Source of the DNA: Escherichia coli
GTDB taxonomy: Bacteria > Pseudomonadota > Gammaproteobacteria > Enterobacterales > Enterobacteriaceae
DNA: 64,000 nucleotides
Direction: 5' to 3' (one strand)
Assembly (NCBI RefSeq): GCF_965641715.1
Contig: NZ_OZ282453.1
The notes under the pieces are model-generated. The model saw only the letters and a list, made by a program, of their open reading frames with translations, made no database searches and was not told the origin of the DNA. Both the position numbers and the translations under genes were made by a program. Positions 45,416 to 48,746 of this stretch are shown piece by piece. Positions within the stretch are counted from its first letter, which is position 1, and each line of letters opens with the position of its first letter.

Positions 45416-46699
45416 TTAGTCTTTAGCTGTTGCATTTTGTTTATGAAACAGTTCACGGAACACCGGATAAATATCATCCTGGTCGCGGATGTGCTGCATC
45501 GCAAAGTTGTCGAAAGTAGATTGCAGATGCTCATATTCTCGCCACAATGTCTGATGTGCACGACGGGTAATTTCGATATAGCTGTAATAACGAACAACAG
45601 GTAATAATTTTTTCGCCAGGATTTCATGGCAAAGCGGAGAGTCATCGGCCCAGTTATCGCCGTCCGATGCTTGTGCAGCGTAAATATTCCACTGTGCCGG
45701 GTTATAACGCTCTTTCACTACCTCATCCATCAGTTTCAGGGCGCTGGAAACAATGGTGCCGCCAGTTTCCTGCGAGTAGAAAAACTCATGTTCATCGACT
45801 TCTTTCGCCTGGGTATGATGGCGGATGTATACGACTTCCACGTTCTTATACGTTCTGCTGAGGAACAGATACAGCAGAATATAAAAACGCTTAGCCATAT
45901 CTTTAGTGGATTGATCCATTGAACCGGAAACGTCCATCAGGCAAAACATCACTGCCTGGCTGGAGGGATCGGGCCGCTTCTCGTAGTTCTTGTAACGTAA
46001 ATCGAAGGTGTCAATAAAAGGGACGCGTTCAATTTTGGCACGTAATTCTGCAATTTCTTTGCGCAGACGTTCCTCTTCCAGCAGCTGCGCAGGTTCACTG
46101 TTGCTGATGATGGCCAAATTCTCTTCCAGTGCATGAAGTTCCCGCCGCTTGCCTGCCGTCATGGCTGTGCGTCGCGCCAGTGAGTTCTGCAATGAACGCA
46201 CAACGCTGATATTGGCCGGAACGCCGTTAGCGGTATAACCCGCCCGATGCGTTTTATATTCGGTCAGCTGGCGTTGTTGGTTTTGTTTCAGATTCGGTAA
46301 GGCCAAATCTTCAAAGAGCAGATCAAGATACTCATCTTTCGAAATCTGAAAGACGAATTCATCCTGACCTTCACCATCCTGGCTGGCCTGGCCCTGACCA
46401 CTGCCGGAACCTCCGCCGCCACCCTGGGGACGTTCAATTCGGTCGTTCTGGACGAAATGGTCATTGCCCGGATGTACGCGGTGGCGCAGGCCGCCACGCC
46501 CCTGATGAAACATCGGTTCGCTAATATCTTCCGTGGGAATGGATACGGACTCGCCGCTGTCGACGTCAGTCACCGAACGCTTATTAATGGCCTCGGAGAT
46601 CGACTGTTTAATTTGCGCTTTATAACGGCGTAAAAAACGCTGGCGATTCACCATGCTTTTGTTTTTGCCGTTCAGACGCCGGTCAATAAACCAGGTCAT
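45416..46699 (-). CDS. yeaH: DUF444 (UPF0229) protein YeaH
   Basis: 427-aa ORF with Gly-rich segment ([12 protein letters not shown]); partner of yeaG. Confidence 0.85.
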
Positions 46700-46811
46700 A
46701 TGCCCCCCGTACTACATTTGCCAACTGTATGCTACGCCTGTGTTGCCGCTTCTCAGGCCCACGGTTCGCTGTCGTTGTAGGCCCGGTAGCATGTGTACCG
46801 GGCCAGGGTTG

Positions 46812-48746
46812 TTAAGACGATTTACGTACGCGCAAATACCATTCGCACAGTAAACGCACCTGTTTACGGGTGTAGCCTTTTTCCATCATACGGTCGACAA
46901 AGTCGTCGTGTTTCTTCTGCTCGTCGGTTGACGTTTTGGCGTTAAACGAGATAACCGGCAACAGCTCCTCGGTATTGGAGAACATTTTCTTCTCGATAAC
47001 CGTGCGCAGTTTTTCATAGCTGGTCCAGTTCGGATTGCGTCCGCTGTTATTCGCTCTGGCGCGCAGTACGAAGTTAACAATCTCGTTGCGGAAATCTTTT
47101 GGATTACTGATCCCCGCCGGTTTCTCGATTTTCTCCAGCTCGGCGTTAAGAGACTCGCGGTCAAACAGCTGCCCGGTATCCGGATCGCGATACTCCTGAT
47201 CCTGAATCCAGAAATCCGCGTAGGTAACATAACGGTCGAAAATGTTTTGCCCATATTCGGAATAGGATTCAAGGTAGGCCGTCTGGATCTCTTTGCCAAT
47301 AAACTCGGCATATTTCGGGATCAGATAACCTTTCAGGAACTCCAGATAGCGTTCTGCCTGCTCTTGTGGGAACTGCTCGCGCTCGATCTGCTGTTCCAGG
47401 ACGTAGAACAGATGGACCGGGTTTGCCGCCACTTCTACATGATCGAAGTTGAACACGCGGGAGAGGATCTTAAACGCAAAACGCGTCGACAGACCGTTCA
47501 TCCCTTCATCGACACCGGCGTAGTCACGATATTCCTGATACGACTTGGCTTTGGGATCGGTGTCTTTCAGACTTTCGCCATCATAAACCCGCATCTTTGA
47601 ATAAATGCTGGAGTTTTCTGGCTCTTTCAGGCGCGAAAGAATGGAAAAACGTGACAGTGTTTCGAGCGTGCCAGGGGCGCATGGGGCGTGAGTCAATTCA
47701 CTGTGATTAAGCAATTTCTCGTAGATTTTGATCTCTTCGGAAATGCGCAAGCAATACGGCACCTTCACGATGTAAACACGATCGAGGAAGGCTTCGTTGT
47801 TTTTGTTATTACGGAAAGTGACCCATTCGGACTCGTTCGAGTGGGCAAGAATAATCCCGTTGAACGGCAGGGCGGAGATACCTTCCGTCCCGTTGTAGTT
47901 ACCTTCCTGAGTGGCGGTTAACAAGGGATGCAGCACTTTAATCGGTGCTTTAAACATCTCAACGAATTCCATGATCCCCTGGTTGGCGCGGCACAGTGCG
48001 CCGGAATAGCCATAGGCGTCTGGGTCATTCTGCGCGTAGTGTTCGAGTTTACGAATATCCACTTTCCCTACCAGCGCGGAGATGTCCTGGTTGTTCTCAT
48101 CACCGGGCTCTGTTTTGGCGATGGCAATTTGTTGCAGAATTGACGGCCAGACCTTCACTACCCGGAACTTAGTGATATCGCCACCAAATTCATGCAGGCG
48201 TTTTGCCGCCCACGGCGACATGATGGTGCCGAGATAACGGCGAGGAATGCCATACTCTTTTTCCAGAATCTGCGCATCTTCCTGCGGATTGAAAAGACAG
48301 AACGGATGATCGTTGACCGGGCTACGCTCACCGTTGGCGCTCAATACATAAATCGGTACGAGCTGCATTAATGATTTCAGTCGCTCAGCAAGCGATGATT
48401 TACCCCCACCCACAGGCCCCAGCAGATACAGGATTTGTTTCTTCTCTTCCAGCCCCTGAGCCGCGTGTTTCAGATAAGAGACAATCTGTTCAATCGCGTC
48501 TTCCATGCCGTAAAACTCTTCAAACGCCGGATAACGTGCAATGACCCGGTTAGAAAAGAGTCGAGAAAGTCTGGGTTCCTGGGCTGTATCGACCATGACA
48601 GGCTCACCGATAGCCATCAATAGCCGCTCAGCCGCGTTGGCATAAGCACTGCGATCTTGCCGACAAGTGGTAAGAAACTCCTGCAGTGTGAACTCTTCGT
48701 CCTTGGCAGCTTCATATCGCTGGCGATAGTGATCGAATATATTCAT
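46812..48746 (-). CDS. yeaG: PrkA-family Ser/Thr protein kinase YeaG
   Basis: 644-aa ORF with Walker A (GPVGGGKSS) and PrkA-type domain. Confidence 0.9.
   Translation of the reverse strand: MNIFDHYRQRYEAAKDEEFTLQEFLTTCRQDRSAYANAAERLLMAIGEPVMVDTAQEPRLSRLFSNRVIARYPAFEEFYGMEDAIEQIVSYLKHAAQGLEEKKQILYLLGPVGGGKSSLAERLKSLMQLVPIYVLSANGERSPVNDHPFCLFNPQEDAQILEKEYGIPRRYLGTIMSPWAAKRLHEFGGDITKFRVVKVWPSILQQIAIAKTEPGDENNQDISALVGKVDIRKLEHYAQNDPDAYGYSGALCRANQGIMEFVEMFKAPIKVLHPLLTATQEGNYNGTEGISALPFNGIILAHSNESEWVTFRNNKNNEAFLDRVYIVKVPYCLRISEEIKIYEKLLNHSELTHAPCAPGTLETLSRFSILSRLKEPENSSIYSKMRVYDGESLKDTDPKAKSYQEYRDYAGVDEGMNGLSTRFAFKILSRVFNFDHVEVAANPVHLFYVLEQQIEREQFPQEQAERYLEFLKGYLIPKYAEFIGKEIQTAYLESYSEYGQNIFDRYVTYADFWIQDQEYRDPDTGQLFDRESLNAELEKIEKPAGISNPKDFRNEIVNFVLRARANNSGRNPNWTSYEKLRTVIEKKMFSNTEELLPVISFNAKTSTDEQKKHDDFVDRMMEKGYTRKQVRLLCEWYLRVRKSS

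Follow-up and report, generated by a model that had tools for sequence, protein, structure and literature searches.

Repetitive extragenic palindromes (REPs) and bacterial interspersed mosaic elements (BIMEs) are said, after work attributed to Newbury in 1987 and to Espeli in 2001, to serve as stabilisers of mRNA 3' ends and as attenuators, for example between malE and malF. We analysed a 64-kb stretch of an Escherichia coli chromosome (the window, by which we always mean the whole stretch) and found that its yeaGH operon, which encodes the PrkA-family ATPase YeaG and the DUF444 protein YeaH, carries a hairpin that resembles these elements. It is a GC-rich imperfect palindrome between operon genes, with a CTAC tail and an inverted second copy; a 3' end lies just past the stem, and there is more RNA of the upstream gene than of the downstream gene. 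Unlike REPs and BIMEs, the E. coli yeaG hairpin is short (25 nt against about 31-35), single-copy and without REP annotation. It also falls outside the canonical E. coli GCCGGATG class: its own sequence class, GCCCGGT..ACCGGGC, has its dispersed copies in Klebsiella, Enterobacter and Citrobacter.

The closest described locus is the yeaGH operon of E. coli K-12 (b1783-b1784), in which genes, order, spacer and hairpin are all the same as in the window. One loop base of the spacer differs, the published K-12 sigma-54 promoter and SdsR sites map onto the window, and there is no difference of substance, the window strain being another E. coli strain with 99.6% identity to its best matches. The proteins of the Bacillus PrkA-YhbH-SpoVR system are homologous to those of E. 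coli, the first two genes are adjacent there too, and loss affects entry into and exit from dormancy-like states. Published accounts of the activity conflict (a kinase for E. coli, a weak protease for B. subtilis and neither of the two for B. anthracis), and regulation is by sporulation sigma factors in Bacillus and by RpoS, RpoN and SdsR in E. coli. YeaG-YeaH is also similar to pairs of an AAA+ ATPase with a vWA protein that carries a metal ion-dependent adhesion site (MIDAS), such as NorQ-NorD, MoxR/RavA-ViaA, CbbQ-CbbO, BchI-BchD and Midasin. A physical contact between YeaG and YeaH is putative. YeaG differs from these pairs in that it is not a member of the MoxR family by Pfam and has a unique C-terminal domain of 260 residues that is predicted to be helical, and the module adds a SpoVR-type third protein.

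PrkA/YeaG-YeaH-SpoVR is among the most conserved unexplained stress modules of bacteria and controls entry into and exit from starvation-induced quiescence; the window adds nothing unusual to the question of its biochemistry. The features described here are those of the published yeaGH operon, for which the vWA nature of the second protein, the phosphoproteome of a yeaG deletion and the mapping of 3' ends were already known. Our additions are modest: a reading of the hairpin as the relic of a REP, with a stem that has been preserved beside a decaying second REP, its positional conservation and covariation across the family, and the match of the block before yeaH to the SdsR seed. They provide a concrete and cheap genetic handle, in the form of stem and spacing mutants, on the setting of the YeaG:YeaH ratio. 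We consider it highly probable that the hairpin is a surviving REP stem that acts as mRNA 3' boundary and stabiliser, in an operon whose spacer is tuned by SdsR and whose products form an AAA+/vWA starvation module.

The hairpin after yeaG and its REP-type relatives

The yeaG coding sequence lies at 46812-48746 on the minus strand (644 aa), the yeaH coding sequence at 45416-46699 on the same strand (427 aa), and a 112-nt intercistronic spacer (46700-46811) separates them. An earlier reading of the DNA, made from sequence alone, had given these identities, lengths and coordinates (45416-48746 in all), and the open reading frames (ORFs), Pfam and RefSeq annotation bear it out. The window is E. 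coli chromosome: 5425 of the 5426 complete E. coli genomes have a match to 45300-49200, with identities of 95-99.6%, and the matched region is annotated there as mipA, yeaG and yeaH. RefSeq calls the products 'protein kinase YeaG' and 'YeaH/YhbH family protein'.

The hairpin occupies exactly 46780-46804 (minus strand) and starts, on the mRNA strand, 7 nt past the yeaG UAA. Its arms, GGCCCGGTA and TACCGGGCC, form a perfect 9-bp stem around a 7-nt loop, it ends in ...CCGGGCCUAC, and UACAACGACAG follows directly on its 3' side, so the perfect stem without a U-tract that the sequence-only reading described is indeed there. Folded in isolation the hairpin reached -18.0 kcal/mol, against -7.9 +/- 2.25 in dinucleotide-preserving shuffles (z = -4.49, with 0 of 200 shuffles as good). 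The remaining structure of the spacer was not unusual against shuffles (z = 0.74 for the 3' part, 0.07 for the whole spacer). Perfect 9-bp hairpins whose loops measure 3-10 nt occur at about 16 distinct sites in the window (29 raw matches, compared with 2.7 raw in shuffles); they are a real, enriched class to which the yeaG-yeaH hairpin belongs, and this hairpin is more than a product of chance.

Within E. coli it is the loop that varies (CACAUGC in the window, CACAUGU in K-12, CACAUAU in strain EC02). Across eight Escherichia sequences all 72 of the 72 pair cells were standard, and two stem pairs were altered on both sides, from A-U to G-C and from U-A to G-U/U-G; pairing fell to 25-56% when the stem partner was slid by one to three columns. 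A covariance-model scan of 45200-49300 with Rfam 15 gave no match at E<=1. An intrinsic terminator has a GC-rich stem with a U-tract directly behind it; because UACAACGA and not a U-tract follows this stem, the hairpin is not a classical intrinsic terminator by that criterion, and a terminator scan did not call it at 46780-46804.

We then compared the spacer in 80 Enterobacteriaceae loci, collected with YeaH as query at one genome per species (81 sequences with the window). Spacer length ranges from 57 to 296 nt in the 80 loci, and the sequence is mostly unalignable between genera. Nearly all of the loci have a GC-rich hairpin 3' of the yeaG stop. The best local hairpin after the stop had a median energy of -19.5 kcal/mol and started at a median of 7 nt from the stop, with 69 of the 81 starting within 15 nt. 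An invariant CCCGG/CCGGG stem core is shared by 55 sequences (52 distinct), and in the 52 distinct hairpins stem positions 6-8 covary: position 6 is U-A in 19 and C-G in 16, and position 7 is A-U in 16, G-C in 6 and G-U in 14. Buttiauxella, Cedecea, Kosakonia, Atlantibacter and Shimwellia have no CCCGG core and carry an unrelated GC-rich hairpin at the same place. The Grimontia spacer, of only 39 nt, has no hairpin and retains ACGGGGGGCUU-AUG, and in Thermus the first two genes overlap; since neither has the hairpin, it is a feature of the Enterobacteriaceae lineage and not of the PrkA module as such.

The relatives of the hairpin point to its origin. In Enterobacter, Klebsiella, Citrobacter and their relatives it takes the form GCCCGGTGGCGC..GCGCTTACCGGGCCTAC. 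When a plasmid collection, some records of which are of chromosome size, was searched by BLAST with the 36-nt consensus of the Enterobacter/Klebsiella form, the repeat was found at 502 places in 238 records. One Klebsiella record of 5.37 Mb had at least 40 copies, and several large records from Klebsiella and Enterobacter had 13-19. The matches almost always lay where there was no underlying gene. Because its copies are dispersed and nearly always extragenic, the Enterobacter/Klebsiella sequence GCCCGGT..ACCGGGCCTAC appears to behave as a REP-type extragenic palindrome. The hairpin in the window is likewise an intergenic GC-rich palindrome with a 9-bp stem and a CTAC tail, ending in ...CCGGGCCTAC. 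A CTAC end is typical of REPs. The E. coli form retains the outer stem of the Enterobacter-type REP, with a shortened centre.

In many spacers the first hairpin is followed closely downstream by a canonical REP, GTAGGCCGGATAAGC..GCATCCGGCA, that is inverted relative to it, so that the two make a BIME-like pair. This second REP is intact in many other genera and, among E. coli strains, in E69 and SCPM-O-B-8794 (122-nt spacer). The window strain and K-12 (112-nt spacer) have an 11-nt deletion and point changes in it, while the first stem stays perfect; the decayed copy in the window, CCGUGGGCCUGAGAAG..CGGCAACACAGGCGUAG at 46732-46764 (minus strand), aligns with the intact canonical REP CCGTAGGCCGGAAAAGCAAAGCGCATCCGGCAATACAGG. 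Since the E. coli hairpin is single-copy while its Enterobacter/Klebsiella orthologue is dispersed, the name of a REP-derived relic probably suits it better than membership of a REP family that is active in E. coli. Counts of REP motifs in the 11-kb flanks of the 80 loci were uninformative because the flanks contain too little intergenic DNA. The REP-like nature of the hairpin had been overlooked in the sequence-only reading, as had the conserved block in the same spacer that is complementary to SdsR (see below).

Seven of the spacers, five from Citrobacter and two from Klebsiella, are 195-296 nt long and contain, after the REP hairpin, an insertion ..GTGAATCCCCAGGAGC.TACATAAGTA.GTGACTGGGGTGAGCG.. 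that resembles the enterobacterial repetitive intergenic consensus (ERIC). The yeaG-yeaH spacer is a site colonised repeatedly by different repeat families.

Transcript ends, SdsR and the yeaG:yeaH ratio

Published 3'-end mapping shows a transcript that ends just after the hairpin. In the curated Term-seq table that forms supplementary file 1 of Adams et al. 2021 (eLife, PMC7815308), yeaG has a 3' end of the class 'primary', and the region sequence printed with it includes the hairpin. The end was found at MG1655 position 1868879 (+) in lysogeny broth (LB) at an optical density (OD) of 2.0, with an average of 1211 reads, and at 1868880 (+) in M63, with 762 reads (PMC7815308). We converted coordinates as window = 1915654 - MG1655 position. 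Because yeaG ends at MG1655 1868842 and the hairpin spans 1868850-1868874, the two 3' ends lie 5 and 6 nt past the stem, at 46775 and 46774 of the window (minus strand). They are the only ends called in the operon, for no 3' end in supplementary file 1 is attributed to yeaH. The suggestion of a processing or attenuation site at the hairpin is supported by this end, and the proposed check on whether the hairpin marks a transcript boundary had an answer in the published data, namely a yeaG-only transcript.

The abundance of the two messages also fits a boundary. The RNA-seq baseMean was 5327.6 for yeaG and 1791.6 for yeaH (McQuail et al. 2023, PMC10954441), which gives about 2.0:1 per nucleotide; an excess of yeaG is what one would expect if the hairpin stopped roughly half of the transcripts. 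DESeq2 baseMean is no calibrated measure, so this ratio is a rough one, and we count its roughness among the points that weigh against our reading.

Most genera among the 80 loci conserve the final ~30 nt ahead of the yeaH start, AGUUGGCAAAUGCAGUACGGGGGGCAU. Within them lies the block CAGUUGGCAAAUGUAG (46712-46727, minus strand), which is complementary to nucleotides ~17-33 of the stationary-phase small RNA SdsR, CUGCAUUAAUGCCAACU (sdsR taken from K-12). That complementarity would account for the fact that most of the 80 loci retain the block but not the remaining spacer sequence. In a scan with the seed region, the duplex between block and SdsR reached -21.2 kcal/mol, within the best 0.25% of all 30-nt windows over the 64 kb, and in 76 of the 80 loci the duplex was at or below -15 kcal/mol. 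Duplexes computed from the full-length RNAs were implausibly extended and did not differ significantly from those of shuffled sequences. RIL-seq had detected SdsR chimeras with 'yeaG.yeaH.IGT' (MG1655 1868803-1868944), numbering 43/36/65 at N- and 64/98/149 at N-24 (PMC10954441), and a supplementary figure of the same paper shows a predicted SdsR site for yeaH.

We also considered an internal sigma-54 promoter at TTGGCAAATGCAG 5' of yeaH and rejected it because the spacing from GG to GC is 7 nt, and not the required ~12; the SdsR complementarity and the RIL-seq chimeras explain this block better. The Shine-Dalgarno sequence of yeaH, GGGGGG, follows at 46703-46708 (minus strand), and ACGGGGGGC(A/U)U-AUG is conserved in Grimontia too.

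SdsR has a further site in the yeaG 5' untranslated region (5'UTR). The published pairing site, CCUGUGCUAA at -31 to -22, maps onto 48768-48777 of the window (minus strand); it was validated with a green fluorescent protein reporter and a compensatory mutation (PMC10954441), and Hfq-mediated chimeras of SdsR with the yeaG 5'UTR were detected (PMC10954441, McQuail et al. 2023). In a strain deleted for sdsR both YeaG and YeaH were increased, with no significant change in mRNA (PMC10954441). Upstream of this site, TGGCATGAGAGTTGC at 48851-48865 (minus strand) matches TGGC-N7-TTGC exactly, about 105 nt 5' of the yeaG ATG. We regard it as a candidate sigma-54 (-24/-12) element, which fits the NtrC/RpoN-dependent control of yeaG published together with a -93 5'UTR construct (PMC10954441).

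The YeaG and YeaH proteins

YeaG belongs to the PrkA family, with both Pfam domains in order and above the gathering score. The AAA_PrkA domain (PF08298) covers residues 19-380 (47607-48692, minus strand; E = 1.3e-187, 623.5 bits, cut-off 25), and the PrkA C-terminal domain (PF06798), the supposed kinase domain, covers residues 382-636 (46839-47603, minus strand; 8.7e-71, 239 bits, cut-off 25). The large P-loop protein of the sequence-only reading has its Walker A motif, GPVGGGKS, at residues 110-117 (48396-48419, minus strand), in agreement with GxxGxGK[ST]. G110, P111, V112, G113, K116 and S117 are invariant in the alignment of homologues, and the K116A substitution abolishes YeaG function (PMC4664914). 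Side matches of the P-loop to AAA_5 and Mg_chelatase were only marginal in Pfam. By sequence YeaG is a P-loop ATPase of the AAA+ type, and an AlphaFold 3-based proposal places B. anthracis PrkA in AAA+ clade III.

The label of a PrkA-type kinase holds for the family and the P-loop, but the word kinase is contested. Residues 382-644 had no match to a Pkinase-family Pfam entry at E<=10, and the C-terminal domain had no match to Lon_C at E<=10 either, so that a kinase similarity is not detectable there by sequence. The nearest solved structure by sequence is Thermus PrkA, deposited as 'Serine protein kinase' (9xip/9xiq/9xir, E = 7.5e-51); a literature search found no publication for 9xip. Similarity to Lon among PDB sequences is limited to the P-loop region (residues 74-127, E = 0.0066). 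The model of YeaG shows residues 360-643 as all-helical, with moderate to low confidence. Foldseek with this poor model returned weak AAA+ matches only (E > 2e-3), with no kinase in the top 50, and did not return 9xip.

The enzymology of YeaG/PrkA is contested in the literature, where it appears as a kinase, a protease or neither. E. coli YeaG was reported to autophosphorylate and to phosphorylate AceA in vitro with malate, in a study that also determined the phosphoproteome of a yeaG deletion and whose authors describe the evidence as preliminary (PMC8055822). For B. subtilis PrkA, which has been reported to be a protease, a weak ATP-dependent hydrolysis of casein and no kinase activity were seen; PrkA of B. 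anthracis had neither activity after rigorous purification, and the earlier protease signal was suggested to come from a contaminant. The earlier statement that substrates and mechanism are unclear thus remains right for the biochemical mechanism but not in full, since AceA is an in vitro substrate and a homologue structure, 9xip, is already out. The phosphoproteomics of a yeaG deletion that had been recommended as a check is likewise already published, with AceA named as in vitro substrate (PMC8055822).

YeaG is strongly conserved, being 86-90% identical over all 644 residues, at the same length, to homologues from Plesiomonas, Photobacterium and Grimontia (Vibrionaceae and Plesiomonas). YeaH homologues in a library of 50%-identity cluster representatives were at most 60% identical over the full length, a figure from a different sample that is not directly comparable with that of YeaG. 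Two 'PrkA family' entries are longer than YeaG, one of 910 aa from Salmonella and one of 724 aa from E. coli, and score 2016 and 1632 bits against 1467 for the self-match, which suggests an internal duplication or an artefact of assembly or annotation.

YeaH is a full-length DUF444 protein (PF04285, 4.2e-191, 636 bits), with residues 4-421 aligned to positions 2-418 of the 418 in the profile. The Gly-rich linker that had been noticed in the DUF444 partner is present at residues ~90-112 (46364-46432, minus strand) and is predicted to be disordered, with pLDDT below 50 for residues 94-106 and a Gly-rich consensus in 114 homologues. Behind it lies a vWA domain (residues ~230-420; 45440-46012, minus strand). 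A search for homologues of YeaH gave 3387 at E<=0.001, and 114 of them, with 37-59% identity, were aligned. Five of the 13 invariant columns are D256, S258, S260, T315 and D346, which make up the DxSxS...T...D pattern of a MIDAS. The structure prediction and fold search proposed earlier for YeaH were run here: the AlphaFold model had a pLDDT of 86.5, with residues 230-420 very confident, and its fold matches included the MIDAS domain of Midasin/Rea1 and NorD of the NorQ-NorD AAA+ complex. These results show that YeaH is a vWA/MIDAS protein with the Rossmann-like fold of that domain; binding of metal and capture of a ligand through the MIDAS are putative functions. The second gene of the Rhizobium etli prkA operon had already been stated in 2011 to encode a vWA protein (PMC3188799).

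Both proteins belong to a larger module. In Thermus and Grimontia a SpoVR-like gene lies directly 3' in a three-gene operon, whereas in the E. coli window no such gene adjoins yeaH. In six bacteria the genes yeaG, yeaH and ycgB have one another as their best cofitness partners, and wide conservation with a SpoVR-like third member, as the sequence-only reading had it, agrees with both observations. E. coli yeaG and yeaH mutants have in common a shorter recovery lag after nitrogen starvation (PMC4664914, PMC10954441), and the same two papers uphold the link of the pair to stationary phase and nitrogen starvation.

Proposed mechanism, rival readings and flanking features

The anatomy of the operon, its conservation, the mapped 3' end, the excess of yeaG over yeaH RNA, the SdsR contacts at the 5'UTR and in the spacer, and the assignment of YeaH to the vWA/MIDAS proteins and of YeaG, by sequence, to the P-loop ATPases of the AAA+ type are established; from them we infer how the 3' end would be formed, how it would affect stoichiometry and what the module may do biochemically. 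RpoS- and RpoN/NtrC-dependent promoters drive the operon, whose transcription runs leftwards in the window, and the REP-derived stem 7 nt past the yeaG stop would form the mRNA 3' boundary and act as a stabiliser. Part of the transcripts would end 5-6 nt past the stem, through inefficient termination or through trimming by a 3' exonuclease. Rho attenuation is associated with BIMEs, and exonuclease trimming back to a protective stem is a mode in which REPs act as stabilisers. The result would be a stable RNA of yeaG alone and a level of yeaG message about double that of yeaH, with yeaH carried by the read-through RNA. The stem may have been retained because it creates or protects the yeaG-only RNA and so gives an excess of YeaG over YeaH. 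Pairing of SdsR at the conserved block would lower yeaH translation on the read-through RNA, and YeaH output could in this way be tuned apart from that of YeaG. By analogy with other AAA+/vWA pairs, YeaH may be the MIDAS adaptor of a YeaG motor. Together with the SpoVR-like YcgB, encoded elsewhere in E. coli, the two proteins would constitute what is genetically one module that slows metabolism in starvation.

Several points weigh against this proposal. The Vibrionaceae (Grimontia) and Thermus loci that we examined have no such hairpin, which means that it is not needed for the function of the module. The many copies expected of a REP are not seen in E. coli, where the hairpin is found at one place per genome, with one match in the 64-kb window, and the K-12 record carries no REP annotation for it; to call it a relic of a REP is to rely on positional orthology and sequence resemblance. 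The read counts for the Term-seq end are low, at about 10^3. yeaG is absent from the list of Rho-dependent ends of Adams et al. 2021, an absence that is uninformative because the experiment was done in LB at OD 0.4, where the operon is barely expressed. The 3' end could come from termination, from Rho action downstream followed by trimming, or from endonuclease cleavage, which are indistinguishable here, and the role of the hairpin itself is putative. On the protein side, the AlphaFold 2 model of YeaG is poor (pLDDT 69.9, and below 50 for residues 202-294) with Thermus and Chloroflexi homologues added.

Other readings of the hairpin have to be considered with these points in mind. It could be a translation-coupled attenuator or down-regulator of yeaGH, which we think rather doubtful, though it is compatible with the boundary and stabiliser role and does not exclude it. 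In one variant the ribosome terminating on yeaG would melt the base of the stem and a close trailing ribosome would lead to read-through into yeaH, so that poor translation of yeaG, as under SdsR repression, would favour the 3' end. In the other the stem would stall the terminating ribosome, and YeaG output would fall because of mRNA cleavage and trans-translation. A REP that lies within 15 nt of the stop codon reportedly stalls the ribosome and lowers output, a result ascribed to Liang, Rudd and Deutscher in 2015. The distance from stop to stem, 7 nt here as in the family median and no more than 15 nt in 69/81, speaks for such coupling, and so does the increase of both YeaG and YeaH without a significant mRNA change in the absence of SdsR (PMC10954441). 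The constant distance may, however, merely reflect one ancestral insertion site, and stalling or tmRNA tagging of YeaG is purely hypothetical.

We find it improbable that the hairpin is what is left of a selfish or neutral REP, without a part in yeaGH expression, and that the Term-seq end is an incidental decay intermediate. Such a remnant would be in keeping with the repeated colonisation of the spacer by the REP, the second REP and ERIC-like elements, with the visible decay of the second REP in K-12 and with the lack of a hairpin in Grimontia and Thermus, outside the Enterobacteriaceae. It is harder to reconcile with a first stem that is perfectly paired while the neighbouring REP decays, with E. 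coli variation confined to the loop, with the unrelated hairpins that genera without the CCCGG core carry at this position, and with the fact that the only 3' end of the operon called by Term-seq is at the hairpin. Very improbable, in our judgement, is a classical Rho-independent terminator that separates two transcription units, with yeaH expressed from its own promoter in the spacer. The stem is stable and GC-rich and a 3' end follows a few nucleotides downstream, as for a terminator, but there is no U-tract and the terminator scan did not call it. A scan of the spacer found no sigma-70-like promoter, and the conserved TTGGCA..TGCAG block is mis-spaced for sigma-54. The phenotypes of yeaG and yeaH mutants, the NtrC-dependent induction and the effect of SdsR on both proteins argue for one operon. 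The reading of the hairpin as a REP-derived boundary and stabiliser within a single operon is the one we prefer.

A bolder and more tentative extension, which we regard as possible, is that YeaG-YeaH-YcgB is no kinase cascade. It may instead consist of an AAA+ motor, a vWA/MIDAS adaptor and a SpoVR cofactor that remodel or load targets in the manner of NorQ-NorD or MoxR-vWA pairs, with the REP-derived hairpin, in Enterobacteriaceae, as a translation-sensitive attenuator that sets the ratio of motor to adaptor and with SdsR trimming both cistrons independently.

Beyond the spacer, strain Combat11I9 and K-12 MG1655 have yeaD, yeaE and mipA on one side of the operon and cdgI and dgcJ on the other, and Combat11I9 has gapA on the yeaD/yeaE/mipA side as well. 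In Grimontia hollisae gapA and an aldose-epimerase (yeaD-like) gene lie 5' of prkA, as in E. coli, and spoVR follows the DUF444 gene. E. coli appears to have lost the third, SpoVR-like gene from the yeaGH locus, ycgB being elsewhere, and to have gained mipA and yeaE between yeaD and yeaG.

Four nucleotides after the yeaH stop there is a hairpin that resembles an intrinsic terminator, with 11 pairs and a U-tract, AUCAGCCGGGUCAUUAUCGCCUGGCUGAU-UUUUAGC (45383-45411, minus strand). This terminator is well formed, yet no 3' end was attributed to yeaH in the three Term-seq conditions, and it is the U-less hairpin after yeaG that was listed. An antisense region of Rho-dependent termination was mapped to the yeaH 3' end, at about 45442 (+) of the window (MG1655 1870212 (-); Adams et al. 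2021, supplementary file 2), implying that antisense transcription enters yeaH from the cdgI side. The two genes 3' of yeaH, cdgI (GGDEF-type, and a putative c-di-GMP-binding protein according to the K-12 annotation) and dgcJ, have the same orientation and occupy 42123-45269 (-). The mechanically called ORF for dgcJ (556 aa, from a GTG start) exceeds the gene as annotated, which spans 1491 nt (about 496 aa).

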